In this document: one piece after another, positions 14,736 to 46,851 of the stretch
How positions within the stretch are numbered: position 1 is the first letter of the stretch
Layout: each line of letters begins with the position of its first letter
Assembly (NCBI GenBank): GCA_965201145.1
Contig: CBDAVT010000002.1
Coordinates: forward strand, 841,084-905,083
DNA: 64,000 nt
Source of the DNA: Dehalococcoidia bacterium
GTDB lineage: Bacteria > Chloroflexota > Dehalococcoidia > Lucifugimonadales > UBA3495
Direction: 5' to 3'
The notes under the pieces: generated by a model
Told to the model about the DNA's origin: nothing
The model's database searches: none
Seen by the model: only the letters and a program-made list of their open reading frames with translations
Translations under genes and position numbers: made by a program

Positions 14736-15474
14736 TTACTCCCCTTCGCCGAAATAGGCTTGTAGAAACTGGAATGCTTGACGCTTTTGTTCCTCGGAGG
14801 CTGACTGTAGTATAGCCATTACGTTCAACCAGCCGGATTCGTCATCCCAATAGTTCTTCTTCATAACTTGATGCCGGCCGCAAAGCGGTTGCCATTGTTC
14901 CGGGTCTGTAGCATCGGCATTGGCATATATTGAGTGGGGCACTTTATGGTCAGGGGTCAGGCGAACCGTCCCACCTCCCACTGGGTCAATATCGCCTTGC
15001 TTTAGACCGCAGATAACGCCGCTTTCCTCCCACGCACACGCCGAATCATGAGCGGAAAGGATAACTTCCCAGACAGCGCTGGTCGGCCGCGACCGTTTGG
15101 ATGCGGCACTGCGGCGTTCTGAGTTGGGCATCATATATTCACTGACGCGGAGGTGGCCCCGGTTACGCCAGGAAAGAATTTATCTTTCGGTCATTATCGA
15201 GCCTTGCCTTGTGGTGGCCCCGGTTACGCCAAGAAAGAATGGTGTAACCGTCGTCTGTACGAAGTTCTGACAGTCGCTGATGCCAATTCTCCGGTATGCG
15301 TCCACTCTGAGGATCTGTAGCAACCTCAATAAGTTGTTCCCTTGTAGCTACCTTTCCCAAGTTTTCCAAGAAAAAAGCTTCCATCCTGGCTTTGATCGAA
15401 CGCTGCGGATAAGGACCGCGTACCGTTGCATTCCGGTCTTCTGTTTCTGTTTCAATATGGCGGTCTTCTACCAT
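14736..15474 (-). pseudogene. HNH-type restriction endonuclease candidate, split into two ORFs (15163..15474 and 14736..15134) by a 61-nt repeat-bounded segment
   Basis: The N-terminal fragment has wHTH-like ...NWHQRLSELRTDDGYTILSWRNRGH. The C-terminal fragment has DHKVPHS...LCGRHQVMKKNYW (beta-beta-alpha-Me/HNH-like). Removing one repeat copy plus the spacer fuses the two in frame. The start overlaps the stop of the upstream methyltransferase. Confidence 0.6.
15152..15240. repeat. 28-nt direct repeat pair (27/28 identical) with 33-nt spacer inside the endonuclease gene
   Basis: GGTGGCCCCGGTTACGCCAGGAAAGAAT at 15152..15179 and GGTGGCCCCGGTTACGCCAAGAAAGAAT at 15213..15240. The offset is 61 nt, not a multiple of 3. 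Confidence 0.9.
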
Positions 15475-16192
15475 AAACTACTCCCAGCCTTTCTCTCGTC
15501 ACATCCAGCCACTTGGCTGAATGGTCGCACAACAGGGCGCGTCTCTCTAACATCCGGCATACCTCACCCGTAGTGCCGGCGCCACACATAGGGTCGATTA
15601 CCAAGTCTTCTTTCTTGGTAGTCATCAGAATGAGCGGTTCAATAACTGCTAAAGGCTTTTGGGCAGGATGTCCCGTCTGTTCCTTTTTTCCGACGAAACC
15701 GATGTTAAGGGGCGCTTCTAACACCGATGGCGGTCCCGGTATAAAACGCATCTTCCCAGAATTGAGACGCTCTAACTGTCCGTCGGACAGGAAGTGTTCA
15801 GGATACATGGTGGCATTGATTGCTGATATATGCAGGCAGGTGTATTGCGCGGAACGCCAGCCTCTAACTACTGAAGGACAGTTCTTGTAATACCAGGTAA
15901 GCCACATGGCCAATTGATGAGTCTGTGGGAGAAGGGGAATTTGACGAGACACAATCTCGGGGAATCCCCACACAAATACATGCTCCGCAAGATTGCAAGC
16001 GGCCGACACAACTTCCGATAGCCAATCATCATAGTCAGCTCGCTCACCACCGATGCCCCGGTTGTACCAAGGGTCAAGGACCACAGTTTGTGCAGATGGA
16101 GCAGTTCTCAAAGTGTCAAGGACATCTGCAGGAGGTAGAACTTCAACATTTTGCATTTCTGGCGGTATATCAAATAGTCTGGCGTTTACCAT
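15452..16192 (-). CDS. Beta-class N6-adenine/N4-cytosine DNA methyltransferase
   Basis: Motif IV-like DPWY (VVLDPWYN) precedes HPAQKPLAVIEPLI and motif I DPMCGAGTTG, the beta-class order. G+C is lower than the flanks by eye. Confidence 0.85.
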   Translation of the reverse strand: MVNARLFDIPPEMQNVEVLPPADVLDTLRTAPSAQTVVLDPWYNRGIGGERADYDDWLSEVVSAACNLAEHVFVWGFPEIVSRQIPLLPQTHQLAMWLTWYYKNCPSVVRGWRSAQYTCLHISAINATMYPEHFLSDGQLERLNSGKMRFIPGPPSVLEAPLNIGFVGKKEQTGHPAQKPLAVIEPLILMTTKKEDLVIDPMCGAGTTGEVCRMLERRALLCDHSAKWLDVTRERLGVVYGRRPPY

Positions 16193-23964: not shown

Positions 23965-24033
23965 CATTTGCTAATTATCTGTACCAGATAATTGGAAATC
24001 ACAATCTTAATATATTTAGGAGGGACATACCAA

Positions 24034-25929
24034 GTGAGATTCAGGATTAGTGGCCGGCGGCGCCTGGGGCGCTGGTTGGTCGCATTAACTGCTATTACAT
24101 CCCTTTTCATTATCGCTTGCGGAGGCGCCGAGTCCCCTACCGCCGTACCACCCGCTGCATCTACCGACAGTCCGAGTTCCGCTGCTGAACCGGCGGCTCC
24201 GGCGACCACTGCCGCGGACTCCGGCTCGATGACCGATCCCGGGTCTATGACCGATTCCGGTAGTTCCGGTCAGAGCCCGGAACCGGCCATGTCGCCCACT
24301 AACACGCCGGTGCCTACGGTACAGCCCACGCCGCGTCCTACCGAGGCTATGGTAATGGCGGCCCGAGACGATGTTATCATCGTACTCAACGAGGAACCTT
24401 CCATCCCGGATCCCTGGATTAGTACCACCTTGTATCCCAATCAGGTAATCCATAACGTTGCCCAGCCAATCTCCTTCTTTGGCCCGGAGTTCACCGACAC
24501 GGCGACGGCCGGCTTTACCGGATTTGAACAGGTAGAGCCTAACGTCTGGCGGCTTTCCCTGCGGGAAGGCGTAACCTTCCATAATGGCGAGGCCTGGAAC
24601 GCCGAGGCGGCGGCCTATACCATCAACCAACTAGGCAGCAACGTCGAGTATCAGCCCTACTCCCAGGTGCGGGAAGCCCATGCTGATATCATCGACGACT
24701 ACACTGTGGACTTTGTCTGCACCAGCGCGGCCGGATGCCCGGTGCTGCCACGCTTTGGTCAGTTCCACGTTTTCGTCGCTCCCGGTTACCACCACGATGT
24801 ATCTCAGGAAGACCGGGACGCTTCAGGCGAGGTAATTGGTTGGGGGCCTTACCAGTGGAAAGAGTGGGTCCGTGGTGAATACATTGACCTGACCGCCAAT
24901 GCCGACTACGTGGAGCCTCAGCCGGTGAACTTTATCACCCAGGCGCCCTCCATCAAGGATGCCCGTTACATTTGGCGCGGGGAAGAGACCGTCCGCTCCG
25001 CTATGATCCAGACCGGCGAGGCCGACCTGTCCTGGGCGGTTTCCATCGACCAGGCCGAACCCATTAACAACAGTGAGCACGGCAAGACCGTCAAGGTGGT
25101 TTCCGGTGAGGTTTACACCATCAACGTCGATACTATCTGGCACCCGGAACTGCGGAAACTGGAAGTTCGGCAAGCCCTGACCCATGCCATCAACTGCGAA
25201 GAACTGGCTCTGGTCTTCTTTGGCCCCGAGTCCCGCTGCTCCAGCGGCCCCAACGGTATCCCCGGAACTTTGGGGGTAAACGAGGATAACTGGAAGCCTA
25301 TTTATACCTACGACCCGGATAAGGCCAGGGAACTGTTGGCTCAGGCCAATTACGATCCGGCCAACAAAATCCAGTTCTGGACCCGGGCCGGCCGGTACGC
25401 CAAGGACGTGGAGATTACCGAGTCCCTGATTACCTTCTGGCAGGAAGTGGGGTTGAACGTCGAGCCGCAAATCGTTGAAGGCAGCGTTTGGCGAGATCGC
25501 CACCTGACCGGCCCGGCCGCAACCTACGATGCGCAGATGGAAGCCGGCGCCACGTCAGAGGAAGCCGCCGCGGCCGTTCCCGAGAATGACCCGCCGCGCA
25601 CCGGAGCCTCCCCGGGACTGGTTTTCTTCGCTCCCGGCGGTGAGTACTTCGACTTCGGGCGGCAGATTAACTTCTACATGAGCTGCGCCGCCAACCGTTC
25701 CAAGAACTGCAACGCCGAGTGGCACGCCCTGGGCCAGCGGGCCTTGTCCGCCACCGGCGACGAGCGCCGCGAGCTGATGACCGAGGCTTACAATCTGTTC
25801 GCGACCAACTTGCTCCAGTTGCCCATGATGGAAATTGTCTCGGTCTGGGGCGTCAACAAGGACCTGGAGTTCGTCAATATGCCCGGCGGACGCCGCATCC
25901 TGATTAACACCATGACCTGGACGCAGTAA
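24034..25929 (+). CDS. ABC transporter substrate-binding lipoprotein, family 5 (peptide/nickel type)
   Basis: AGGAGGGA RBS plus GTG. Lipobox LFIIAC-GG. S/T/P-rich linker, then a family-5 SBP fold (about 500 aa). Confidence 0.85.
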   Translation: MRFRISGRRRLGRWLVALTAITSLFIIACGGAESPTAVPPAASTDSPSSAAEPAAPATTAADSGSMTDPGSMTDSGSSGQSPEPAMSPTNTPVPTVQPTPRPTEAMVMAARDDVIIVLNEEPSIPDPWISTTLYPNQVIHNVAQPISFFGPEFTDTATAGFTGFEQVEPNVWRLSLREGVTFHNGEAWNAEAAAYTINQLGSNVEYQPYSQVREAHADIIDDYTVDFVCTSAAGCPVLPRFGQFHVFVAPGYHHDVSQEDRDASGEVIGWGPYQWKEWVRGEYIDLTANADYVEPQPVNFITQAPSIKDARYIWRGEETVRSAMIQTGEADLSWAVSIDQAEPINNSEHGKTVKVVSGEVYTINVDTIWHPELRKLEVRQALTHAINCEELALVFFGPESRCSSGPNGIPGTLGVNEDNWKPIYTYDPDKARELLAQANYDPANKIQFWTRAGRYAKDVEITESLITFWQEVGLNVEPQIVEGSVWRDRHLTGPAATYDAQMEAGATSEEAAAAVPENDPPRTGASPGLVFFAPGGEYFDFGRQINFYMSCAANRSKNCNAEWHALGQRALSATGDERRELMTEAYNLFATNLLQLPMMEIVSVWGVNKDLEFVNMPGGRRILINTMTWTQ

Positions 25930-25962
25930 AACCTGACCTGACCTTTCAGGGTGCAACTCAAG

Positions 25963-25990
25963 GCCCCCGGACGCTTTGTCCGGGGGCTTT
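25963..25990 (+). terminator. Rho-independent terminator
   Basis: 10-bp GC stem GCCCCCGGAC-gcttt-GTCCGGGGGC followed by TTT, 34 nt after the SBP stop. Confidence 0.75.
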
Positions 25991-26049
25991 AGGTTCTAGG
26001 TATATACTCTGTGCTACAATTTACTAAAGTATCTTTTGGGAGATTCCAA

Positions 26050-26904
26050 ATGGTGGTGGTTGAAGAAGAACTGTTGGTTGAGAAAACTGAGCTCTCTGAT
26101 GATGACGAACCGCAAGATGTTCGCTATGACGTAATGCCATATCCGGCTGATTACACTGTAAAAGGATTGTACGATAAATGGCAAGCAGGACAGTTGATAA
26201 TACCGAATTTTCAGCGTAACTACGTTTGGAGTCAAATCCAGGCGAGTCGATTTATTGAGTCATTCCTATTAGGGTTGCCGATTCCCCAAGTGTTCTTGTA
26301 TCGGGACCGTTCTGATCCTAATCTAACAATTATAGACGGTCAGCAGCGAATTAGCACTATAGCTCGTTTTTACAATGGAGAATTCAGTATGAAAGGAGTT
26401 AATCCCCGGTGGGAAGGGCGGGGATATGATGATCTGATCGATTACGACCGTGCAGAGTTGGACGACGCTACTTTACGAGCGATTGTCATCAGGCAAATAC
26501 GTCCTGACGACCGTTCCAGTATTTATCATATTTTCGAGCGATTAAATACCGGAGGCGTCCGCCTTAATGAAATGGAGATTCGCCGTGCCCTTTATCAAGG
26601 TGAAGCAAATGCCTTGTTGGAGCGGTTGAATAAAAATCCTGAATGGCGTTTGCTCATTGGAATGTCTGAACCTGACCGTAGGTCTCGTGACTTGGAGCTA
26701 ATTCTTCGTGTATTGGCCCTTGCTGAAAACTGGAAAAGTTATGGCAAGCCGATGAAGAATTTCATAACCCGATACATGGAGACCCTTGACAAGGCGAACC
26801 CCGAAGAAATATATCAGATGGAACATCGATTTAATAAAGCCTGCCAATCAGTCTTGTCTCAATTGGGAGAAAACCCTTTCATCTGCGGAACAGGATTAAT
26901 TTAG
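26050..26904 (+). CDS. DUF262 (ParB/GmrSD N-terminal-like) protein, module 1; truncated by a 1-nt frameshift (remainder 26880..27089 in another frame)
   Basis: IPNFQRNYVWSQIQASRFIESFLLGLPIPQVFLY...IIDGQQRISTI...ERLNTGGVRLNEMEIRRAL. Paralogous to 44626..45723. After ...LGENPF homology continues in the frame starting at 26880 (HLRNRINLAALDSVMAC... vs RPSQNFNAAVFDSMFVAL...). Strongly AT-rich compared with the flanks. Confidence 0.8.
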   Translation: MVVVEEELLVEKTELSDDDEPQDVRYDVMPYPADYTVKGLYDKWQAGQLIIPNFQRNYVWSQIQASRFIESFLLGLPIPQVFLYRDRSDPNLTIIDGQQRISTIARFYNGEFSMKGVNPRWEGRGYDDLIDYDRAELDDATLRAIVIRQIRPDDRSSIYHIFERLNTGGVRLNEMEIRRALYQGEANALLERLNKNPEWRLLIGMSEPDRRSRDLELILRVLALAENWKSYGKPMKNFITRYMETLDKANPEEIYQMEHRFNKACQSVLSQLGENPFICGTGLI

Positions 26905-27093
26905 CGGCTTTGGACTCGGTTATGGCTTGCTCTATAGAATTGATCGATTCACTCAGGCCTGACATTGGGTTTGAGTACAAAAAGTTGTTGGATGATGAAA
27001 CTTTTATGGAGGCAGTAACTCACGATACTAGTGATCAGTCAATGCTTCGAAAAAGATTCGAAAAAGTCCATGCAGCGTTCAGCTCCTAATAAT

Positions 27094-27588
27094 ATGCCGG
27101 ACCTATTGCCTCTGACCGGATCTGCGATTATTGACTACCAAGATCATATAAGTCGGTATCCGGACACCGACCCTGTTATATTGGCTTATCTGGCAAGACA
27201 CATCAACGGACTGATGTGTGCAGAAATAGAGCGAGTGGTAACAAGGTTAGTCTGTGAAAGGTTAGAAGCGAAATATAACGATAATGAAATCTCAAATTTC
27301 TTTCTAAACTTCTTGGATTCCCGACGTATCAGCAGTATAAAGAATGTAAGAGTCGATCAAGTACGTACTACTTTAACTGCATTTGGACGTTCTTATCGAG
27401 AAAAATTTGATGATCTGATGAATAAATTCGTAACTCCTGAAGATGTTGGAAATCTGAGTGTTGCCGTAAAAAAACGAAATGATGACGCGCATAGCATTCC
27501 GCCCACTGTTTCATTTGAAGAGGTCCAGGAAACCTATAGAGTTGCAACCTCGTTAGTGGACGCAGTCAGGCAAACTTTGGAAACCTGA
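27094..27588 (+). CDS. HEPN-like protein with Rx4H motif (module 1 partner)
   Basis: The KKRNDDAHS motif (R-x4-H) sits in the C-terminal helical region of a ~164-aa alpha-helical protein. The start is 4 nt after the TAATAA that ends the frameshifted DUF262 frame. Architecture matches 45724..46203. Confidence 0.65.
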   Translation: MPDLLPLTGSAIIDYQDHISRYPDTDPVILAYLARHINGLMCAEIERVVTRLVCERLEAKYNDNEISNFFLNFLDSRRISSIKNVRVDQVRTTLTAFGRSYREKFDDLMNKFVTPEDVGNLSVAVKKRNDDAHSIPPTVSFEEVQETYRVATSLVDAVRQTLET

Positions 27589-27604
27589 TTAAACTGACCT
27601 CCCC

Positions 27605-29035
27605 CTACCGCACCGGCCCGCCCAGGGGGGAACGGGGCGAGTCGCTTTCCAGGAACCCGCCGTAGCCCGGCTGCTGTTCCAGTTCTCCCTGATTAAGCAA
27701 TACCTTCCCCCGCAGCAGGGTCATATAAGGGCGTCCCTGCACTTGCCAGCCTTCAAAGAGGGTGTAGCCGGCGTTGCTGTGATGTTCCCGGGAAGTAATG
27801 ACTCGGTCGCCCCAGGGGTCCAGGATTAGCAAGTCGGCGTCAGACCCCACCTGGATAATCCCTTTACGCGGGTAGAGTCCAAAGACACGGGCCGGATTCT
27901 CCGACATAACCCGGGCCAACCACCAGATAGGCAGCCCTCGCTTCACTACGCCCTCGCTGTACATTAACGGAACCAGGGTTTCCACCCCGGGTGAGCCGAA
28001 GGGTACTGACCGGCCCTCGGCATCCACGAAAATATTGTCCCAACCTACTTGCTTCAACTCCTGCGGATACGGCGCATGGTCGCTGGCGGTGATGGAAATA
28101 TGCCCCTGCTCCAGACCCCGCCACAGGGCGTCCTGGTCCGGGCCGTCGGCGGGACGCAGCGGTGGGCCAATCTTGGCTAAGGGGCCGTACTTGGCCATCT
28201 CGGCATCGGACAGCAGCAAATATTGAGGGCAGGACTCGGTCCAAATGCGCTGACCCAAAGCCTGGGCCTGTTTTATGCGTTCCAGCCCCAGCTGGGTACT
28301 CAGATGGACGACGTAGGTAGGGCAATTGGTGGCGGCAGCCATTTTGACGGCCCGATTTATCGCCTCTTCCTCAGCCCAATCGGGACAGGCAGCCGGAAAG
28401 TCGGTGGGGTGCGTATGCCCCTCGGCCATAAGCTTGTTCTCCAGATACTCAATGATATTGCCGCTCTCGCAGTGCAATTGCAGCACGCCACCGCCCCGGG
28501 CCACCATATCCATAGCCTGACAGATGTAGTCATCGTCGCACATACGGTAAGGGCGCTTTTTGTAGGTCATAAACATCTTGTAGGACTTTACCCCCAAGTC
28601 CAGGGCTTGCGGGAGACTGTTCAGGATGTTTGGCCGGTTCTGCAGGATGAAGTGGAAGGCGAAGTCGGTCACGGCGGTGCTTTCCACTTCCTCGCGAGAA
28701 CGGTGGATAGCCTCGGGCAGCGTTTCGTCGCCTTCCAGGTTGTAGGTGCCGAAGGAAACCAGCGTGGTCAGACCGGCATGGGCGGCGGCCAGGGACCCCA
28801 GGGCATAGTTGTCGTGGCCGTCCAGATGAACGTGGCAGTCAATTAGCCCGGGCAGCACAAACATACCCGAAGCGTCAATGTATCTATCCGCCGGGGGCAG
28901 CAGGCTTTCGGGGCCGATGTCGGCGATTTTCTCACCGTCAATGGCAATAGAAGCCCGGTAAACCTGGGATGAGGTAACAATCTGACCACCAACGACGACA
29001 GTATCTACCCGCCGGTCAGTTTGAGTTGAGGTCAT
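27605..29035 (-). CDS. Dihydropyrimidinase/D-hydantoinase-family cyclic amidohydrolase
   Basis: GLIDCHVHL metal-binding motif and the layout of a ~475-aa amidohydrolase. GGAGG RBS before ATG 29035. Confidence 0.8.
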   Translation of the reverse strand: MTSTQTDRRVDTVVVGGQIVTSSQVYRASIAIDGEKIADIGPESLLPPADRYIDASGMFVLPGLIDCHVHLDGHDNYALGSLAAAHAGLTTLVSFGTYNLEGDETLPEAIHRSREEVESTAVTDFAFHFILQNRPNILNSLPQALDLGVKSYKMFMTYKKRPYRMCDDDYICQAMDMVARGGGVLQLHCESGNIIEYLENKLMAEGHTHPTDFPAACPDWAEEEAINRAVKMAAATNCPTYVVHLSTQLGLERIKQAQALGQRIWTESCPQYLLLSDAEMAKYGPLAKIGPPLRPADGPDQDALWRGLEQGHISITASDHAPYPQELKQVGWDNIFVDAEGRSVPFGSPGVETLVPLMYSEGVVKRGLPIWWLARVMSENPARVFGLYPRKGIIQVGSDADLLILDPWGDRVITSREHHSNAGYTLFEGWQVQGRPYMTLLRGKVLLNQGELEQQPGYGGFLESDSPRSPLGGPVR

Positions 29036-29239
29036 AGGGCGCCTCCTTGTGGTCAAGTGGGTTGATTCACGATTAGCCGCAGGAAGTCAAAGAGCTGCGC
29101 ACAGCCAGGCGCGGCGTTCCGCACTTTGGTCGGGTGACGTTAGCCAACCGGCCTGGCGTATGTCCGGTCTGGTGTCAAGCGCCTTTTGACATACCGGCGG
29201 TGGCGCTGCTGTAGCGTGAGTTACTATACAAAATTCGGG

Positions 29240-35752: not shown

Positions 35753-37633
35753 ATGTCCTATCATTGGTTGACCATACCCAAGTCAGTACTCATCGGTTCC
35801 CTGGTTCTGGCCCTGACCCTGCTGGCAGCCTGCGGCTCCGCCGCCCCCGAGATTGTTGAGAAGGAGGTACTTAAAGAAGTAACTGTAGAAGTACCCAAAG
35901 TGGTGGAAGTAATCAAGGAAGTTGAAGTGCCGGTGGAGGTAGAAAAGCAGGTCCTCCAGGAAGTGGAAGTGGTCAAGGAGGTAGAGGTACTGAAGCAAAT
36001 CCCCAAGGAAACGGTGGTTGAAAAGATGGTCATTGCCACCCCCACTCCGATTCCGGCAGTGATGGATGCGGTGGAAACTAAGGTGGATCGGGTGATTTAC
36101 GCTTTGGGGGAAGTGCAGGAAACCAACCGGCACTGGACGGTCAGCCGTCCTTCCTACTATCAGTTCGACCCTTACGGTGAAACGCTGGTGGGTTTGGACC
36201 CGCACAGCAACGAACGCATTCCCCGCTTGGCCAAGAGTTGGGAATGGAGCGAGGACGGGAGAGAATGGACTTTCCACCTGGTTGAGGGAGTACCTTTCCA
36301 CTTTGGCTTTGGCGAGTTTACGGCCCACGATGCCGTGGCGGCCCACCATCGGACTCTGGGCGAAGATTCCCAGGCCAGTGCAGCTTCCTTTTTCCGGGGA
36401 GCCACCGCCGAAGCTTTGGATGACTACACGGTCAAATACACTTTCGACGGCCTGTCCCTGGACACGCCGGCAATCCTCTCCCGTGGTTTCGGCGGCGGTG
36501 AAGTTCTGATGCTGAGCCAGAAGCAGTTCGAGTCCGAGGGTCTCGAAGGCTTTGATGCCCGGCCGGCCGGCACCGGTTCTTATATGTACGGTGGCCGAGA
36601 AATTGGACAGGGGCTGTGGTTCGAAAAGGCGCCCGGTACCCATTGGCGCGGTGAGAATCCCGACTTTCAGGAAGTAGAGCTGCGCTGGGTGCGGGAAGAC
36701 CTGACGCGTCTGGCGGCTTTGCTCACCGGCGAAATCCACGTCGCTGCCCTGTCCCGGGAACTGCAGCTGGAAGCCGGACGGCGAGGGATGAAGCCGGCGG
36801 CGGCCGGTGTGCCGACCAACTACCTGTCCCTGTTCCTGGGCGGGATGTATTTCTCCGAAGGCGACCCCGATTATGACCCCTCAGTGCCCTGGGCTCATCC
36901 CGCTACGGGTAAACTGATCCGGCAGGCCATGAACCAGGCCATTGACCGGCAGGAGATGCTGCAGCACGTTCTCAAAGGCGATGGCGAGTTGATGTATAAC
37001 ACGGCCTACCACCAGGTCCTGCGGGGCTGGAATCCCCAATGGGAAACGGACTGGGAAAGTCTGTACGGGTATGACCCGGAAGCAGCGAAGAATTTGATGG
37101 CCCAGGCTGGTTACGGCCCGGATAACCCGATGCCCTTTACCTCTTACAACTACTTCTCGGCGGATGAGCCGGAAACGGCAGTGATGTTGGAGGCATTGAT
37201 TAATTTCTGGGAACCCATCGGCATCGACGTAACCCTGCTGGACAGCGAGTGGGGAACCGTCCGTAAAGAGTATCGCGCCAAGGGCGATTTCATCAAAAAG
37301 GGCGGTTGGGGCAACGTAATCACCATGCGGTCGCTGACCACCCGGCTGCGCGTCTGGAGCTTTGCCGCCACCGGAAATGGCGGAGGATACGAAACCGACC
37401 TCCAGGACCGGAACTATCTGGAATATATCGCCCTGGAAAACGTGGATGAAACTGCCATTAACCGGCTGATTCAGGAAATCGGGGACGACCGCTACTATAA
37501 TTTTGCGGATATTCCCTTTTTCTGGTTCCGCCTGACGGTAATGTTCAACCCGGAAGTGGTGGAAAGCTGGACCTTCCCGGGCACCGCTTCTTCGAAAACC
37601 AGTCACTGGGACCTGCTGCGGGCCGCGCAGTGA
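35753..37633 (+). CDS. ABC transporter substrate-binding lipoprotein, family 5, with E/V/K-repeat linker (paralog A)
   Basis: Lipobox LLAAC-GS, then EIVEKEVLKEVTVEVPKVVEVIKEVEVPVEVEKQVLQEVEVVKEVEVLKQIPKE, then a family-5 SBP fold. Highly similar to 37910..39787. Confidence 0.85.
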   Translation: MSYHWLTIPKSVLIGSLVLALTLLAACGSAAPEIVEKEVLKEVTVEVPKVVEVIKEVEVPVEVEKQVLQEVEVVKEVEVLKQIPKETVVEKMVIATPTPIPAVMDAVETKVDRVIYALGEVQETNRHWTVSRPSYYQFDPYGETLVGLDPHSNERIPRLAKSWEWSEDGREWTFHLVEGVPFHFGFGEFTAHDAVAAHHRTLGEDSQASAASFFRGATAEALDDYTVKYTFDGLSLDTPAILSRGFGGGEVLMLSQKQFESEGLEGFDARPAGTGSYMYGGREIGQGLWFEKAPGTHWRGENPDFQEVELRWVREDLTRLAALLTGEIHVAALSRELQLEAGRRGMKPAAAGVPTNYLSLFLGGMYFSEGDPDYDPSVPWAHPATGKLIRQAMNQAIDRQEMLQHVLKGDGELMYNTAYHQVLRGWNPQWETDWESLYGYDPEAAKNLMAQAGYGPDNPMPFTSYNYFSADEPETAVMLEALINFWEPIGIDVTLLDSEWGTVRKEYRAKGDFIKKGGWGNVITMRSLTTRLRVWSFAATGNGGGYETDLQDRNYLEYIALENVDETAINRLIQEIGDDRYYNFADIPFFWFRLTVMFNPEVVESWTFPGTASSKTSHWDLLRAAQ

Positions 37634-37909: not shown

Positions 37910-39787
37910 ATGACATTCCGGTTGCATAAATCTCGCGCACTTTTGATTGGATCATTGATTCTTCTGCTATCTTTTGTGGTTGCCTGTGGCAGCGCCGCTC
38001 CTGAGATCGTGGAAAGGGAGGTAGTCCGGGAAGTAGAAGTACCCGTCGAGGTAGAGAAAGAGGTAGTCCGGGAGGTAGAAGTACCCGTCGAGGTAGAGAA
38101 GGAAGTAGTCAAGGAAGTCGAGGTAATTAAGGAAGTCGAGGTACTCAAGGAAGTACCTAAGGAAACCGTCATCGAAAAGACGGTGATCGCCACCCCTACG
38201 CCGATCCCGGCGATGATGGAAGCCGTCGAGGCCAAGGTGGAGCGGGTCATTTACGCTCTGGGCGAAGTACAGGAAACCAACCGGCACTGGACGGTTGGGC
38301 GTCCTTCTTACTACCAGTTCGACCCCTACTCCGAAACGCTAATCGGCTTGGACGCAAATACCAACGAGCGGATTCCGCGCCTGGCCAAGCGTTGGGAATC
38401 CACTCCTGACGGCCGGGTTTGGACTTTCCACTTGGAAGAGGGAGTCCCCTTCCACTTTGGTCACGGAGATTTCACGTCCGCCGATGTGGTAGCCTCCTTC
38501 GACCGCATTTTGGGCGAAGATTCTCAAGTCTCTGCCGTGTCATTCTTTAATGGCGCCACCTACCAGGCGTTGGATGACCACACTGTAGAGCTGGCCTTCC
38601 CGCAGATTTCTTTGGATACCCCCTCCATAGTGTCCCGCGGCTTTGGCGGCGGCGAAATAATGATGCTGAGCAAGAATCAGTTTGACACTGAGGGACTAGA
38701 GGGCTTCGACAATCGCCCGGCCGGTACCGGTTCTTACCAGTATGGCGGCAAGACCCTGGGCCAGAGTATCTGGTTTGAGAAGGCGCCCGGCCCCCACTGG
38801 CGCGGCGAAAACCCGGACTTCCAGGAAGTAGAGTTGCGCTGGGTGCGGGAAGACCTGACCCGCCTGGCCGCCCTGCTGACTGGTGAAATCCACGTCGCCG
38901 CCCTGTCCCGGGAGTTGCAGTTGGAAGCCGGACGGCGGGGAATGCAGCCAGCCGCGGCTGGTGTGCCGACCAACTACCTGACCATGTTCCTGGGCGGACA
39001 GTATTACGGCGCTTATCAGGATGATTATGACCCCAATGTTCCCTGGGCCAGCCCGGAACATGGTAAGAATATCCGTCAGGCGATGAACAAGGCTATCAAC
39101 CGCCAGGAAATGCTGGATCACGTCCTGAAGGGCGACGGCGAGTTGATGTTGCTGACTCAGTATCACCCGGTACTGGGAACCTGGAATGACCAGTGGGAAG
39201 AGGACTGGGAAGAGCTTTATGGCTACGACCAGGAAGCGGCCAAGAACTTGATGGCCCAGGCCGGCTTCACTCCTGACAATCCCATGGCCTTCACCTCCTA
39301 CAACTACTTCTCGGCGGATGAACCGGAAACGGCAGTTATGCTGGAAGCTCTGATTAACTATTGGGAGCCGATCGGCATCGACGTAACCCTGCTGGACAGC
39401 GAATGGGGTACCGTCCGCAAGAACTACCGGGAACGGACCGACTTCATCAAGAAAGGCGGTTGGGGCAACGTAATCACCATGCGCTCCCTGACCAACCGAT
39501 TGCGGAGCTGGAGCTCGGCGCAGGGAGTAGGTGGAGCCGGATACTATTCCGACATCATCGAGCGCAACTATAAGGCTTATCAGGCGCTGGATACGGTGGA
39601 CTACGACCGAATCAACGAGCTGTTGCTGGAAGTAGGTAACGACAAGTATTACAACTTTGCCGACATCCCCTTCTTCTGGTTCAGTCTGACGGTGATGTAC
39701 AACCCCGAAGTAGTAGAGAGCTGGACTTTCCCCGGAACCGCCGGCTCCAAGACCAGCCATTGGAACTTGCTGCGGGCCGCGCAGTAA
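37910..39787 (+). CDS. ABC transporter substrate-binding lipoprotein, family 5, with E/V/K-repeat linker (paralog B)
   Basis: Lipobox VVAC-GS. The linker contains a duplicated VREVEVPVEVEKEV. Collinear with paralog A over the whole length. Confidence 0.85.
   Translation: MTFRLHKSRALLIGSLILLLSFVVACGSAAPEIVEREVVREVEVPVEVEKEVVREVEVPVEVEKEVVKEVEVIKEVEVLKEVPKETVIEKTVIATPTPIPAMMEAVEAKVERVIYALGEVQETNRHWTVGRPSYYQFDPYSETLIGLDANTNERIPRLAKRWESTPDGRVWTFHLEEGVPFHFGHGDFTSADVVASFDRILGEDSQVSAVSFFNGATYQALDDHTVELAFPQISLDTPSIVSRGFGGGEIMMLSKNQFDTEGLEGFDNRPAGTGSYQYGGKTLGQSIWFEKAPGPHWRGENPDFQEVELRWVREDLTRLAALLTGEIHVAALSRELQLEAGRRGMQPAAAGVPTNYLTMFLGGQYYGAYQDDYDPNVPWASPEHGKNIRQAMNKAINRQEMLDHVLKGDGELMLLTQYHPVLGTWNDQWEEDWEELYGYDQEAAKNLMAQAGFTPDNPMAFTSYNYFSADEPETAVMLEALINYWEPIGIDVTLLDSEWGTVRKNYRERTDFIKKGGWGNVITMRSLTNRLRSWSSAQGVGGAGYYSDIIERNYKAYQALDTVDYDRINELLLEVGNDKYYNFADIPFFWFSLTVMYNPEVVESWTFPGTAGSKTSHWNLLRAAQ
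38033..38116 (+). repeat. 2 x 42-bp tandem duplication in the SBP linker
   Basis: GTCCGGGAAGTAGAAGTACCCGTCGAGGTAGAGAAAGAGGTA is repeated immediately with 2 substitutions. Each unit encodes VREVEVPVEVEKEV. Confidence 0.85.
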
Positions 39788-42507: not shown

Positions 42508-44183
42508 CCTCCCAGGTCTATTACCGCAAATGGCGCCCCGGTTGCTTTGCTGACTTGGTGGGGCAGGAGCACGTGGCTACCACCTTGCGTCAAGCCATTA
42601 AGCAGGGGCGGGAATCTCATTCGTATCTGTTTTGCGGTCCGCGGGGTACCGGCAAGACTACCACTGCCCGCATCGTAGCCAAGGCGGTTAACTGCCTGGA
42701 ACCTTTGGATGGCGACCCTTGCAACCGCTGCGCTGTCTGCGTCTCCTTTAACGAAGAGCGGTTCCTGGATACCATTGAAATGGACGCCGCCAGCAATCGA
42801 GGTATCGAGGACATTCGAGACATCCGGGACAAGGTGAACTTTGCGCCGGTTGAGGGCCGCCGCAAGGTATATATCATCGACGAGGCCCATATGCTTACCG
42901 ATCAGGCCTCTAATGCCTTCCTCAAAACCTTGGAAGAGCCGCCGGCCCACGTCATTTTTATTCTGTGCACTACGGAAGCCAACCGGATTTTACCCACCAT
43001 AGTCTCCCGTTGCCAGCGTTTTGACTTTAGACGGCTGCCCGCCGAGCGAATCTACCAGAGACTGGCGGAGATTACCGAGGGAGAGGGCGTTTCGGTGGCG
43101 CCGGAAGCCCTGCGACTGGTAGCCCGCTACGCTGCCGGCAGTCTGCGGGATGCGGAGAATCTACTGGAGCAGTTGGTAGTATCTTTCGGCGACGGCGTAA
43201 CGCTGGTCCAGGTTGAGGAACTGCTGGGGCTTGGGCACGGCGACCGCTGGCTGGATTTAGTCAAATATCTGCTGACCGGCAACACTACGGCCTGCCTGGA
43301 GGTCGTTAATCAGGCAGCCTGGGATGGGGCGGACCTGCGTCAGATGCACCGGCAGGCCCTGGAACTGCTGCGGGGGGCAATGCTTCTGGAATGGAGCGCT
43401 GCCGATACCCTGGAATTTCCCGAGCACGTGACCGGCCAATTGCGGGAACTGGTAGGCAACTTGCCTAATACACGCATAGTAAAGGCCCTGCGTATCTGGG
43501 GCGAGGTCAATATGCGCTATGACGCTCCCTCGACGCTGCCCCTGGAATTGGCGATAGTGGAAATCTGTAACGAAGACCTGGCGCCGCCGGCGGAAGCCGC
43601 TCCGGCTCCAGCCACTCCCCGGACAGCTCCCGCCCCGCAGAATCACCGCACGGGAGGAAGTCCGTCCCCGGCCTCCGGGCCGCCCCATTCCAACGGCGCC
43701 CCGGCCCAACCTGAAGTCGCCTCGCGTCCGGCAGAACGTCCCCGCACCGCTCCAGCGCGCCCCCAGCCAGCAGGCCAGGTAGCCGAAACTTCCGGGAGTT
43801 CCAGCGACGGCGAGGGTATATCCGACAAGTGGCTTGCCGCCGTGAAAGCGTTAAGTCGCTGTACGGGAAAGAAATACAATCTCGGCGCGCTGCTGCGGGA
43901 CTGCAAGGCCAACACCATAACCCTGGAAAGTGATACACTGTTGATACCCTTCGTGCATCGCCCCAATTTGGAACGGATGCAGGAAGAAATGGAAGACTCC
44001 GGCTCACGGCAAATGATTGCCGAGGCGGTAACCCGGCACTTCGGTACGCAGTACGATTTCAAGATATTTCTTGCGGGACAAGATGAGGAAGGCTCTCAAC
44101 CCGGTCGGCCCTTCCAGCACAGTCCGTTGGTGCGTACCGCGATGAACATGGGAGCCCGGATCGTGGAGGATACAATCGAATGA
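42504..44183 (+). CDS. dnaX: DNA polymerase III subunit gamma/tau
   Basis: YRKWRP..., GPRGTGKTTTARI, zinc module CNRCAVC, IIDEAHML, SRCQRFDF. The C-terminus is P/A-rich. Confidence 0.95.
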   Translation: MTSQVYYRKWRPGCFADLVGQEHVATTLRQAIKQGRESHSYLFCGPRGTGKTTTARIVAKAVNCLEPLDGDPCNRCAVCVSFNEERFLDTIEMDAASNRGIEDIRDIRDKVNFAPVEGRRKVYIIDEAHMLTDQASNAFLKTLEEPPAHVIFILCTTEANRILPTIVSRCQRFDFRRLPAERIYQRLAEITEGEGVSVAPEALRLVARYAAGSLRDAENLLEQLVVSFGDGVTLVQVEELLGLGHGDRWLDLVKYLLTGNTTACLEVVNQAAWDGADLRQMHRQALELLRGAMLLEWSAADTLEFPEHVTGQLRELVGNLPNTRIVKALRIWGEVNMRYDAPSTLPLELAIVEICNEDLAPPAEAAPAPATPRTAPAPQNHRTGGSPSPASGPPHSNGAPAQPEVASRPAERPRTAPARPQPAGQVAETSGSSSDGEGISDKWLAAVKALSRCTGKKYNLGALLRDCKANTITLESDTLLIPFVHRPNLERMQEEMEDSGSRQMIAEAVTRHFGTQYDFKIFLAGQDEEGSQPGRPFQHSPLVRTAMNMGARIVEDTIE

Positions 44184-44479
44184 ACCGGAACATGATGCGT
44201 CAGGCCCAGCGAATGCAGGCGCAGTTGCAAAAAATTCAGGAAGAATTGGAGACCATGACCGTTGAAGGCAGCGCCGGCGGCGGTGTGGTCAAAGTCGTGA
44301 TGACGGGTAAACAAGTGGTGGAGTCGGTTATTATTGAACCGGAAGCGATGGAGGATGTGGAACTGCTGCAGGACCTGGTGGCGGCCGCCTTCAACGATGC
44401 CTCGGACAAGACCCAGCAGCTGGCCGCCAGCAAAATGGGCGCCATCACCGGCGGCATGAATATCCCCGGTCTGACTTAA
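44180..44479 (+). CDS. ybaB: YbaB/EbfC nucleoid-associated protein
   Basis: MNRNMMRQAQRMQAQLQKIQEELE...GGGVVKVVMTGKQ. ATGA overlap with dnaX. Confidence 0.9.
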   Translation: MNRNMMRQAQRMQAQLQKIQEELETMTVEGSAGGGVVKVVMTGKQVVESVIIEPEAMEDVELLQDLVAAAFNDASDKTQQLAASKMGAITGGMNIPGLT

Positions 44480-44625
44480 TCGTCCCAGCGCAGCCGCGCC
44501 GGGCAGCTAACTGAGTTGGGGCATTTCTCCGGTTTAAGGTACTGCTTTGATTGTTGTGGCCCTGCGGTCAAGGACTGCCTTCCGTACTTCTATGTTGGGA
44601 GTCCGGACTGTTTCACAGAGGGACT

Positions 44626-45723
44626 ATGGTAGATCGCTATCAACAACTGCAACTGGATATTGAAATTGAGGATAGCGCTGCGGATGATGCGGCGGTTGCC
44701 CTGGTCAAGTACGATATTTCCAGCTATGGAATAGACTTCGACGTGGAAGGCTTGTACCGGCGGCTCAAGCGGGCAGAGATTTTTGTACCATCGTTCCAGC
44801 GCAGCTACGTTTGGAGCCTGGAGGAAGCCTCTCGATTTATTGAAAGTCTGTTGTTGGGTTTGCCAGTTCCTGGCATATTTCTGGCGAGAGATGAAGTATC
44901 GGGCAAGCTGCTGGTAATCGACGGCCAGCAGCGCCTTAAATCCTTGATGTTCTTTCTTGACGGTGACTTCAACTCTGACAACAGCGGCAAAGCCCGGCAA
45001 TTTAAGCTGAAGGATGTCCAGGGAGAATTTGCGGGCAAAACTTACGCTACCCTGCCGGAAAAGAACCGAATCGACCTGGACAACGCCATTATCCACGCCA
45101 CCGTTGTCAAGCAGGATCACCCGCAGGGCGATGACACCAGTATTTACCATATCTCTGAGCGGTTGAATTCCGGAGGAAGGCAGCTGTACCCTCAGGAAAT
45201 GCGGAGCGCCTTGTATCACGGGACGCTGATTGACACTATCCAGGACTTGAACCGGCACGAAAGCTGGCGCAGTATATACGGCCAATCCAGCGCCAGGTTA
45301 AGGGATCAAGAGCTTATTCTCAGATTCCTGGGGTTGTATTACTCTGAGGCAAGGTATTCCCGTCCTCTTAAAGAGTTTCTTACCAAATTTCTTATCCGAC
45401 ACCGCAATCCTGCACCGGAGGTGTTGGACTCGTACAGCAATACCTTTTGCCGGGTCGCCGACTTGTGGTGGGAAGCGTTGGGTAACAAAGCTTTCCGCCC
45501 CTCGCAAAATTTTAACGCCGCCGTTTTCGATTCAATGTTTGTAGCGCTGGCTAGAAGAGTCAACCAGGCTGATGTTCCGGCTCCGGAAAAATTAGCTCGA
45601 GCCTATCGGGAAGTTTGGGATGATGCAGACTACCGGAGCGCTATAGTAACCCGATCGACATCTGAAGAATCTTCGGTGCAAACCCGTCTGGACAAGGCGA
45701 CGAGTCGTATTGCAGAACTGTAA
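44626..45723 (+). CDS. DUF262 (ParB/GmrSD N-terminal-like) protein, module 2 (intact)
   Basis: FVPSFQRSYVWSLEEASRFIESLLLGLPVPGIFLA...LVIDGQQRLKSL...ERLNSGGRQLYPQEMRSAL. The C-terminal ~200 aa is helical with no His-Me/HNH (DUF1524-type) motif visible. Confidence 0.85.
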   Translation: MVDRYQQLQLDIEIEDSAADDAAVALVKYDISSYGIDFDVEGLYRRLKRAEIFVPSFQRSYVWSLEEASRFIESLLLGLPVPGIFLARDEVSGKLLVIDGQQRLKSLMFFLDGDFNSDNSGKARQFKLKDVQGEFAGKTYATLPEKNRIDLDNAIIHATVVKQDHPQGDDTSIYHISERLNSGGRQLYPQEMRSALYHGTLIDTIQDLNRHESWRSIYGQSSARLRDQELILRFLGLYYSEARYSRPLKEFLTKFLIRHRNPAPEVLDSYSNTFCRVADLWWEALGNKAFRPSQNFNAAVFDSMFVALARRVNQADVPAPEKLARAYREVWDDADYRSAIVTRSTSEESSVQTRLDKATSRIAEL

Positions 45724-46203
45724 ATGAGGAACGTTCGCCTGGTCGGTCAATATAATACCATCCAGTCCCTTATTGAGCGAACCGGAACAGCCACCGGAGA
45801 AAATATAGAATTACAGGGGCATTGGGGACGTTATCTTTGCATATTGGCCGCGGGACTGCTGGAAAATTCAATCCGGGAAATTTACCAGGAATTCGTCCAA
45901 AACTCCGCCAGTCCTCCGGTAGCCAGCTTTGCATCATCCCGGTTGCGCGGTATCAATAACCCGAAGTCAGAGAGATTTGTTCAAGTCGCTTCCTCCTTTA
46001 GCCAGGAATGGGGACAGTCTCTGGCAGAGTTCCTGAATGCCAGCAACGGGGAGCGCAAGGACGCCATCGACTCAATAATAAATAACCGCAACCAAATTGC
46101 CCACGGCAGAAACACCAATATTTTCGTAGTTCGAGTGAAAGGCTATCTGGACCGAGTGGTGGAAGTCATTGACTTTATTGAATCCCAGTGCAGCGAGCGC
46201 TGA
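45724..46203 (+). CDS. HEPN-like protein with Rx4H motif (module 2 partner)
   Basis: The ATG directly abuts the DUF262 TAA. NNRNQIAHG motif (R-x4-H). 159-aa helical protein with the same layout as 27094..27588. Confidence 0.7.
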   Translation: MRNVRLVGQYNTIQSLIERTGTATGENIELQGHWGRYLCILAAGLLENSIREIYQEFVQNSASPPVASFASSRLRGINNPKSERFVQVASSFSQEWGQSLAEFLNASNGERKDAIDSIINNRNQIAHGRNTNIFVVRVKGYLDRVVEVIDFIESQCSER

Positions 46204-46233
46204 CTACCCGTCGGCCCAGCCCGAGAAGGTGCC

Positions 46234-46851
46234 ATGACCCTGGAACATTTGCCATCGGCCGCCCCTTCCCTGGCGCGGCTAATTCAGGAACTTAACAAGC
46301 TGCCCGGCATCGGCCCCAAGAGCGCCCAGCGGTTGGCTTACTTCATTATCCGCTTGCCCGATGCCGAGGCTTACGACCTGGCCGACGCCATCAGCGCCGT
46401 GAAGCGGAGCATTATGTTTTGCGGCCAATGCCAGAACTTGACCGACTCCAACCCGTGCGCCGTCTGCGCCAATAGCCAGCGCAACCGGGAGCAAATTTGC
46501 GTGGTTGAAGAGCCGTTGGACGTACTGGCCCTGGAGCGTACCCATTGCTACCGGGGCTTGTACCACGTCCTGCACGGCGTTCTGTCGCCCCTCAACGGGG
46601 TGGGGCCGGAGCAAATCAAGCTGCGCGAGCTTTTCGCTCGGGTGTCCGGCGGCGAGGTCAAGGAATTGGTCATCGCCACTAATCCGACGCTGGAGGGCGA
46701 GGCTACGGCGATGTACATTTCCCGCCACTTGGCCGGAAGCGATGTAAAGGTAACTCACCTGGCCCGGGGGCTGCCGGTGGGCGGTTCCCTGGAATACACC
46801 GACGAACTGACCTTGAGCCGCGCTTTTCAGGGTCGGCAGGAAATGGAGTAA
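46234..46851 (+). CDS. recR: Recombination protein RecR
   Basis: LIQELNKLPGIGPKSAQRLA (HhH), C4 finger CGQCQNLTDSNPCAVC, Toprim region. Confidence 0.95.
   Translation: MTLEHLPSAAPSLARLIQELNKLPGIGPKSAQRLAYFIIRLPDAEAYDLADAISAVKRSIMFCGQCQNLTDSNPCAVCANSQRNREQICVVEEPLDVLALERTHCYRGLYHVLHGVLSPLNGVGPEQIKLRELFARVSGGEVKELVIATNPTLEGEATAMYISRHLAGSDVKVTHLARGLPVGGSLEYTDELTLSRAFQGRQEME

Follow-up and report, generated by a model that had tools for sequence, protein, structure and literature searches.

PD-T4-2 is a two-gene anti-phage system, listed as 'DUF262, HEPN', whose two open reading frames (ORFs) span 1,540 bp in Escherichia coli ECOR65 and which defends both its native strain and K12 against T4 (Vassallo et al. 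2022, PMC9519451). Its HEPN partner is listed under PF18735 (PMC10952713), and a comparative study had earlier recorded the association as 'Ribo L-PSP-HEPN: operon with ParB' (PMC3710099, Anantharaman et al. 2013). Here, two gene pairs of this kind were examined in a stretch of 64,000 nucleotides from a Dehalococcoidia bacterium assigned to the Chloroflexota (assembly GCA_965201145.1, contig CBDAVT010000002.1, positions 841,084 to 905,083 of the forward strand), referred to as the window. Module A, the main subject, lies in an AT-rich islet at 25991-27604 and consists of the genes for a DUF262 protein (DUF262-A) and an HEPN protein (HEPN-A). Module B, at 44626-46203, encodes DUF262-B and HEPN-B.

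Taken together, it is probable that module A belongs to the DUF262 + RiboL-PSP-HEPN class of two-gene anti-phage systems exemplified by E. coli PD-T4-2, that it is long resident in an old slot, and that its DUF262 gene, the presumed sensor, has suffered a recent lesion. The features of the module are:

26012-26020, plus strand: putative promoter of the module, an extended -10-like TGcTACAAT read by eye from the sequence, with a proposed function only
26038-26043, plus strand: Shine-Dalgarno sequence GGGAGA, 6 nt before the DUF262 ATG; orthologues carry GAGGAGG, GAGGAGA or GGAG at the same place
26050-26904, plus strand: 5' part of DUF262-A in frame 0, a 284-aa product with ATG start and TAG stop (26902-26904), covering the whole of the ParB-like DUF262/GmrSD_N domain and, of the C-terminal helical (ParBDB-like) domain, the first half
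26874-26880, plus strand: frameshift site CCCTTTC, with one base missing relative to CCT TTY CAY in a codon alignment with six orthologues
26880-27089, plus strand: 3' part of DUF262-A in the -1 frame, 69 codons and TAA (27087-27089), encoding the last four helices of the C-terminal domain
27094-27588, plus strand: HEPN-A, intact, 164 aa, RiboL-PSP type (PF18735), with its ATG 4 nt after the DUF262 TAA and no Shine-Dalgarno sequence
27475-27492, plus strand: codons of R128-N-D-D-A-H133 (within KKRNDDAHS), the predicted catalytic R-x4-H

Comparison of module A with described systems

The likeness to PD-T4-2 lies in a DUF262 protein of ~365 aa without DUF1524/HNH followed by a small PF18735 HEPN, in the ORF span (1,540 bp and, in module A, 1,539 bp) and in the PADLOC profile PD-T4-2_A, which matches DUF262-A and DUF262-B nearly end to end. 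The differences are that the profile of the second gene, PD-T4-2_B, matches neither HEPN of the window, that DUF262-A is only ~35% identical to the enterobacterial plasmid relative that was examined, and that module A, with its frameshifted sensor gene, is found in Chloroflexota in a fixed core-genome slot and not in a prophage or mobile island. PD-T4-2_B also misses the HEPN partner on an E. coli IncX1 plasmid, which is itself PF18735 at 2.9e-13, and the model thus appears narrow. Since PD-T4-2_B matches neither HEPN and seems narrow, both pairs are placed in the class without being called PD-T4-2 as PADLOC strictly defines it; protection against phage would here be by analogy.

The 'operon with ParB' described for the Ribo L-PSP-HEPN family (PMC3710099) is the same association, a PF18735 R-x4-H HEPN gene beside a ParB-like DUF262 gene, although that description is purely comparative and module A has no L-PSP fusion. 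With Menshen, NsnABC (Millman 2022; PMC12065111), DUF262-A shares the NsnA architecture of ParB-DUF262 and ParBDB, the logic by which a sensor role is proposed, and the recombinational diversity of the C-terminal domain, also seen here (below). There is however no gene for the NsnB ABC-ATPase or the NsnC inPIN nuclease, the partner being a directly coupled HEPN. Menshen was excluded for either module, the neighbours being the solute-binding protein gene, HEPN and amidohydrolase genes for module A and ybaB, HEPN and recR for module B. GmrSD, BrxU and SspE have in common with DUF262-A the N-terminal DUF262 nucleoside triphosphate (NTP)-binding domain with the DGQQR and FQRxxVW motifs, but module A lacks DUF1524/HNH and its effector is a separate RNase-type protein rather than a fused DNase. 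HepT/MntA appears to share the helical HEPN fold with R-x4-H, HepT structures being among the top Foldseek matches of HEPN-A; the module lacks an MNT nucleotidyltransferase, however, the structural similarity is weak (template modelling (TM) score 0.4-0.5), and lesions in the sensor gene seem tolerated, which speaks against an antitoxin role.

Such pairs were also found on plasmids and in viral contigs. In viral contigs, 33 of the 36 assessable DUF262 relatives (not de-replicated) are followed by an R-x4-H ORF of 154-259 aa at a gap of -23 to +14 nt. On conjugative IncX1 plasmids of E. coli and Salmonella (L013, NZ_CP102858.1 28361-30001) the same DUF262-HEPN pair neighbours the gene for replication initiation, and in the P2-like phage Peduovirus P24B2 (L014) a DUF262 gene is followed by an MAE_28990-type HEPN gene. 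The HEPN partners of L013 and L014 were recognised by no PADLOC 2.0 model.

The DUF262-A gene and its frame break

The 5' ORF of DUF262-A carries FQRNYVW, IDGQQRIST and ERLNTGGVRL, and its tail reads ...LGENPF-ICGTGLI*. Its 284-aa product, identical to database protein P0001, matched GmrSD_N (PF03235) in Pfam at 1e-28, above the gathering score, and the PADLOC models NsnA (9.6e-63, the best) and PD-T4-2_A (2.5e-44) over near full length. The frame starting at 26880 translates as HLRNRINLAALDSVMAC... and is open to the TAA at 27087-27089; this part matched positions 311-379 of the NsnA profile (E 5.8e-4) and keeps all four family-invariant residues that lie past the break, N284, D289, T327 and R336. 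In a Pfam scan, PF03235 was the only domain found and a DUF1524/HNH nuclease domain was absent from either half of DUF262-A and from DUF262-B.

The AlphaFold2 (AF2) model of the closest intact orthologue (P0002, pLDDT 88.4) found its best structural match in BrxU (7p9k, E 3.8e-6) and, more weakly, matched SspE (6jiv) and ParB-family NTP-binding (CTPase) domains. Its helices 285-301, 306-315, 317-322 and 330-344, modelled at pLDDT 88-96, correspond to the part lost in the window. A DNA-binding ParBDB domain has been defined for NsnA, to which the C-terminal helical domain of DUF262-A corresponds (PMC12065111).

The initial annotation had placed a frame break after ...LGENPF, with homology continuing in the frame from 26880, and this was borne out both by codon alignment and by alignment to DUF262-B. 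At the break, six of six orthologues read CCT/CCA TTY CAY (Pro-Phe-His) where the window reads AAC CCT TT- CAT. The missing base falls within 26877-26880 and is either one T of TTTT or one of the C-C junction, so that the window's CCCTTTC stands against CCCTTTTC or CCTTTCC as the forms of an unbroken gene. One base added at the T-run gives a DUF262-A of 346 aa, and the four closest intact database orthologues (71-75% identity) are uninterrupted and each exactly 346 aa long; the nearest database relatives at large are likewise uninterrupted, at 346-354 aa, and the closest of them are syntenic copies in the same slot. The repaired protein aligned to DUF262-B straight through the break (334 residues, 36% identity, E 1e-67), and a scan of genome contigs with it detected one locus only.

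The pairwise number of synonymous substitutions per site (dS) is saturated in the islet genes (proportion of synonymous differences, pS, >0.75) and gives no ratio to the non-synonymous number (dN/dS) for the window DUF262; selection was judged by comparing dN and by counting unique substitutions instead. Against the six orthologues, dN of the window gene was 0.15-0.22 before the break and 0.20-0.42 after it, compared with 0.12-0.26 and 0.11-0.40 among the orthologues themselves. Of the changes unique to the window at otherwise invariant columns, 11 fall before the break (277 residues) and 2 beyond it (69 residues). Relative to the six orthologues, an excess of non-synonymous change indicative of relaxed selection was thus seen neither before nor after the break. 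Because of this, and because the downstream frame is open and the invariant residues are kept, the lesion is either very recent or an error of the consensus.

Probing with long ORFs from thirteen related loci revealed no other true frame break in ~20 kb of coding sequence of the window, and the assembly is therefore not indel-prone. The exact HEPN-A sequence, sought in public assemblies for a second assembly with an intact upstream gene, was not on record, and neither was protein P0005. Phase variation at the site was rejected, a run of 3-4 nt being too short for it. In a related genome of 2.64 Mb (L001), the conserved Trp44 of the DUF262 gene is changed from TGG to TGA (LYEK*, L001:5986-5988) while the HEPN gene is intact, and TGA is also used as the normal stop of that DUF262 gene. 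This nonsense lesion is independent of the window frameshift, and real inactivation of the DUF262 gene does happen. On balance, the frameshift in the window is probably real, with appreciable doubt.

HEPN-A and its probable coupling to the DUF262 gene

The small downstream ORF had been proposed to encode an HEPN protein, and it passed the profile test as HEPN_RiboL-PSP (PF18735) at 1.9e-10 with 41.4 bits against a cut-off of 28.4. R128 and H133 are conserved in at least 90% of 25 HEPN-A homologues. Relative to L001, the sole orthologue with unsaturated dS, dN/dS was ~0.18. The AF2 model (pLDDT 87) is all-helical with seven helices, and the motif sits at the end of helix 115-131 and in the following loop. 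The top Foldseek matches were HEPN domains, namely 2hsb/AF_0298 (probability 0.95), HepT (7bxo, 5yep, 6m6w), sacsin and Csm6, with weak scores (best E 0.12, TM 0.4-0.5), and a search of the HEPN-A profile against PDB sequences gave chance matches only.

An exhaustive HEPN-A profile search gave 371 cluster representatives, mostly stand-alone proteins of ~160 aa. One of 503 aa (P0297) is a natural DUF262-HEPN fusion, with PF03235 sub-threshold at 70-124 and an HEPN-A-like region at 338-496 (E 1.1e-17). In another family member (P0130), KKRTTMPTAFPQPSPFRKSKK replaces KRNDDAHSIPP... at alignment columns ~150-170, which looks like a local double frameshift destroying R-x4-H. Several further members are N- or C-terminally short (110-146 aa).

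In all seven module A loci, 4 nt separate the DUF262 stop from the HEPN ATG, which lacks a Shine-Dalgarno sequence, while the DUF262 start has a strong one. This arrangement suggests that HEPN is translated by coupling to the DUF262 gene, and a premature stop 190 nt upstream therefore probably cuts the translation of HEPN, so that the frameshift would probably lower HEPN-A output too. It had been suggested that this copy may retain only its HEPN partner; the HEPN-A gene is indeed intact, but its retention in function is doubtful given the absent Shine-Dalgarno sequence, the apparent coupling and the stop 190 nt upstream. As to transcription, TGnTAnnnT occurs at a similar upstream position in all five orthologues examined, that is in six loci including the window, and TGcTACAAT is probably the module's own promoter; a promoter and terminator scan was at chance level.

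The slot of module A in related genomes

The edges of the islet are formed by the following features:

23992-25929, plus strand: ORF of the SBP_bac_5 solute-binding protein (SBP) gene, left flank, with host-type composition (G+C content at third codon positions, GC3, 0.72)
25955-25995, plus strand: GC-rich terminator hairpin of the SBP gene, left edge of the islet, an inverted repeat with arms 25955-25972 and 25978-25995
27605-29056, minus strand: ORF of the convergent amidohydrolase (dihydropyrimidinase-like) gene, right flank, with its stop codon 16 nt from the HEPN-A stop

The earlier description of an AT-rich islet of ~1.6 kb between the SBP terminator and position 27605 holds, edges included, the GC content being 0.427 compared with 0.59 window-wide and 0.595 in each flanking gene. 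The amidohydrolase gene served as the anchor for collecting 79 metagenome loci, mostly from marine metagenomes.

Module A was found in the same slot in six related genomes (L001-L006), where DUF262 is 64-75% and HEPN 52-65% identical to the window. It lies directly after the SBP terminator in L001, L002, L003 and L005, the SBP genes of which are 76-86% identical to that of the window; the SBP of L006 is fragmentary, and in L004 the pair lies directly after an MGMT gene. Downstream, the amidohydrolase gene is present in L002, L003 and L005 (88-94% identical) and as fragments in L001. The terminator hairpin is kept in L003 and L005. Flanking genes overall are 76-94% identical to those of the window, with pS 0.48-0.62 and dS ~0.8-1.3, whereas the module genes are 52-75% identical with a saturated pS of 0.74-0.86, the exception being HEPN versus L001 at 0.61. 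The nearest relative differs by gene: L003 and L005 for the flanks, L002 and L004 for DUF262, and L001 and L003 for HEPN.

Other states of the slot were also present. At L015:6443-6603 it is empty, with only the hairpin, which is kept, and ~100 nt of spacer between the convergent stops of an amidohydrolase and an SBP gene that are 92% and 82% identical, respectively, to those of the window. At L016:5948-6632, in another close relative and beside an amidohydrolase gene of 91% identity, it holds a different gene, cut by the contig end, with a GC of 0.45 compared with 0.65; this cargo gene had no Pfam match and among PADLOC models only a weak match to HEC-04 (8.9e-5). A comparison of L004:2700-5000 with L006:5700-8000 revealed a mosaic, with 93-96% identity in the first half of DUF262, 52-78% in its C-terminal half and 100% through HEPN, and clearly the C-terminal (ParBDB-like) domain of the sensor has been swapped by recombination. 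The slot is thus old and polymorphic, being occupied, empty or filled with other cargo, and its alleles are exchanged by recombination; this exchange would explain why the module keeps its foreign composition.

Broken genes were noticed next to the slot as well. In a related 3.4-Mb genome (L006:3165-5850) several short ORFs stand in place of an unbroken SBP gene upstream of the module, and gene decay near the slot is therefore not confined to the window. At L001:7400-8464 the amidohydrolase gene beside the module is broken into fragments.

No integrase or transposase was present among the ORFs between 25930 and 27604, and an Rfam and tRNA scan of the window gave no matches. A search for target-site duplications and for terminal or boundary repeats at the islet found only short repeats at chance level, and mobile-element boundaries for the islet were rejected on that ground.

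The low islet GC and the low GC3 of both modules, which a composition profile had been proposed to examine, were seen. GC3 is below that of host genes in both; in module A it is 0.37-0.44 (DUF262-A 0.44, HEPN-A 0.37) compared with ~0.71 in the flanks and host genes. The orthologous modules in the same slot (L001-L006) have a GC3 of 0.50-0.61, above that of the window, whose low GC3 comes without extra amino-acid divergence. Import of an allele from a donor of lower GC, or selection at the codon level, could be behind it.

Module B and its relation to module A

The features of module B are:

44626-45723, plus strand: DUF262-B, intact, 365 aa, matching PF03235 at 5.1e-27 and PADLOC NsnA at 2.3e-62 and PD-T4-2_A at 2.8e-51
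45724-46203, plus strand: HEPN-B, 159 aa, with RNQIAH, matching PF18735 at 4e-18, its ATG abutting the DUF262-B stop

The two modules had been described as having the same architecture. They do agree in their two Pfam families and in gene order, but they differ at the junction, where the gap between stop and ATG is 4 nt in module A and 0 nt (TAAATG) in module B. The DUF262 proteins are 36% and the HEPN proteins 22% identical. A direct and a profile-profile comparison of HEPN-A with HEPN-B were not significant (E 0.013; hhalign probability 5%), and the homology of the two rests on the shared Pfam family and on viral-contig partners that match both hidden Markov models (HMMs).

In a neighbour-joining tree, bootstrapped with a simple distance, the A family was supported by 95% and the B family by 100%, while a sister grouping of A and B received 19% and B joined the E. 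coli IncX1 plasmid protein in 65% of the replicates. The B family includes proteins of Acidobacteriota at 54-57% identity. The two modules are thus divergent paralogues, as first proposed, and a recent duplication of A and B was rejected from the identities and the separate supported clades. An independent origin of A and B is supported by these data, but it is ancient for both.

Module B is wedged between ybaB and recR (window 44180-46851). The arrangement dnaX-ybaB-[DUF262-HEPN]-recR-recO recurs in six other contigs (L007-L012), with DUF262 66-71% identical to DUF262-B. The long-term maintenance of a defence pair inside a cluster of replication and repair genes is unusual. Neither module is a recent arrival, and module A has probably been long resident in a lineage assigned to Chloroflexota. 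Of the proposal that foreign composition argues for independent horizontal acquisition, independence thus stands in view of the deeply separate clades, while a recent or genome-specific acquisition does not, module A being in the same slot in six relatives and module B in six contigs.

Proposed working and alternative explanations

From domain homology, the working of the module may be depicted as follows: The pair would be transcribed from its own promoter just past the SBP terminator, and HEPN would be translated through coupling to the upstream DUF262 gene. The DUF262 protein, with its ParB/Srx-fold NTP-binding domain and helical ParBDB-like DNA-binding domain, may sense phage DNA or infection and then license the HEPN partner, a predicted R-x4-H RNase, to cut RNA and stop phage growth. 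In the window, a single-base deletion would truncate the sensor after residue 277, with loss of four helices of its C-terminal domain, and the frameshifted translation would end 190 nt before the HEPN start. Because the sensor is truncated and translation ends that far upstream, the module as a whole has most likely been freshly inactivated rather than reduced to a working HEPN.

Several points weigh against this account. PD-T4-2_B matched neither HEPN-A nor HEPN-B at E<=1, and the literature search found no solved structure or mechanistic study of PD-T4-2, so the sensor-effector scheme is an analogy with GmrSD, BrxU and SspE and with the Menshen model (PMC12065111). The Foldseek matches of the HEPN-A model lend the HEPN fold weak support, the frameshift is read from the assembled sequence, and the extra-low GC3 of the window module (0.37-0.44 compared with 0.50-0.61 in orthologues) is not accounted for by this account alone.

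The nature of the break admits two other explanations. It may stem from an error of assembly or consensus at a short homopolymer, and the gene would then be unbroken and module A a second PD-T4-2-like system with full function; we hold this to be possible but rather unlikely. The site is a T3/C3 run, a single added base restores exactly the 346 aa of four orthologues, and the absence of relaxed selection together with the open 3' frame and its four preserved invariant residues agrees with an unbroken gene. Yet the run is only 3-4 nt long, ~20 kb of neighbouring coding sequence has no other frame break, and the same gene in L001 carries an independent lesion of the substitution type (TGG to TGA). 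A -1 ribosomal slippage that bypasses a true break, with a low, tuned output of full-length sensor and via coupling of HEPN, is highly improbable. In frame 0, 26874-26880 reads C_CCT_TTC, a perfect X_XXY_YYZ heptamer in the correct frame, from which a -1 slip gives the conserved ...NPFHLRN..., and its first C derives from a window-specific AAG to AAC change (Lys to Asn) at a Lys that is otherwise invariant. In E. coli, ribosomes are prone to shift on U_UU.Y tetramers and on all-pyrimidine heptamers, but even the best slippery motifs give ~0.3% without stimulators (PMC4066793). No significant 3' stimulatory structure was found in the 100 nt downstream (fold z = -1.67, 10 of 200 shuffles folding as well), the Shine-Dalgarno-like GGGAG lies only 4 nt upstream of the heptamer and encodes the conserved Leu-Gly-Glu, and none of the six orthologues is frameshifted at the site. 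If slippage were true, selection would be maintaining a weakened, low-dose form of the defence module, which would then not be decaying.

Two further alternatives concern the origin and the function of the pair. That module A is a foreign cassette, acquired both recently and independently, its AT-richness being the footprint of the transfer, is suggested by its GC (0.43 versus 0.59) and GC3 (0.37-0.44 versus 0.71 in the flanks), by an islet that exceeds every sampled orthologous module in AT content and in synonymous divergence, by the empty slot of the close relative L015 and by relatives on plasmids and in phages. This is nevertheless unlikely: the same pair occupies the same slot in six relatives at 64-75% and 52-65% identity, the syntenic copies are the closest of all its database relatives, and searches for an integrase, a tRNA, a target-site duplication and terminal repeats were negative, so that at most an allele was replaced in an old slot and a new insertion is not supported. 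Less likely still is a toxin-antitoxin pair in which DUF262 neutralises a constitutively toxic HEPN, or an orphan effector HEPN-A, perhaps served by DUF262-B in trans. HEPN RNases serve as toxins in HepT/MntA and related systems, among which the model has structural neighbours; HEPN-A is both intact and conserved (dN/dS ~0.18 versus L001), a second sensor gene lies 18 kb away, and truncated DUF262 products might still bind HEPN. Two independent DUF262 lesions, the window frameshift and the L001 nonsense change, are however tolerated beside an intact HEPN, which is unexpected for an essential antitoxin; HEPN-A has no Shine-Dalgarno sequence of its own, and cross-talk is unlikely with 22% identity between HEPN-A and HEPN-B and sensors whose C-terminal domains differ too. 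A sensor that activates an effector is favoured over toxin-antitoxin because of the C-terminal-domain swap, the two sensor lesions with HEPN intact and the apparent coupling throughout.

For annotation, both pairs should be entered as PD-T4-2-class (DUF262 sensor + RiboL-PSP HEPN) defence modules, with a mark on the first gene of module A as probably a recent pseudogene. Deviant composition alone is no evidence of recent transfer, since low GC3 persists in a slot-resident module while its flanks have diverged to dS ~1. The class was already known, and nothing here would surprise a specialist in phage defence; the by-products of use are the allele with an empty site, the exchange of the C-terminal domain, the repeated sensor lesions that leave HEPN in place and the conserved position of module B in dnaX-ybaB-recR.

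Other compositional features of the window

A second patch of low GC (~0.51-0.52) was noticed on the minus strand at window 14736-16192. It holds an N6/N4 DNA methylase gene (PF01555, 4.1e-17; 15452-16192) and beside it two small ORFs without a Pfam match, one of which has an HNH-like 'DHKVPH...CGRH'; the patch may be a small restriction-modification unit. Two further dips in GC, at 35-36 kb and 37.5-38 kb, do not mark islands. They correspond to AT-rich linkers of Glu/Val/Lys repeats (EVxVPVEVEK...), one at the 5' end of each of two tandem paralogous genes for solute-binding proteins, 35753-37633 and 37910-39787.

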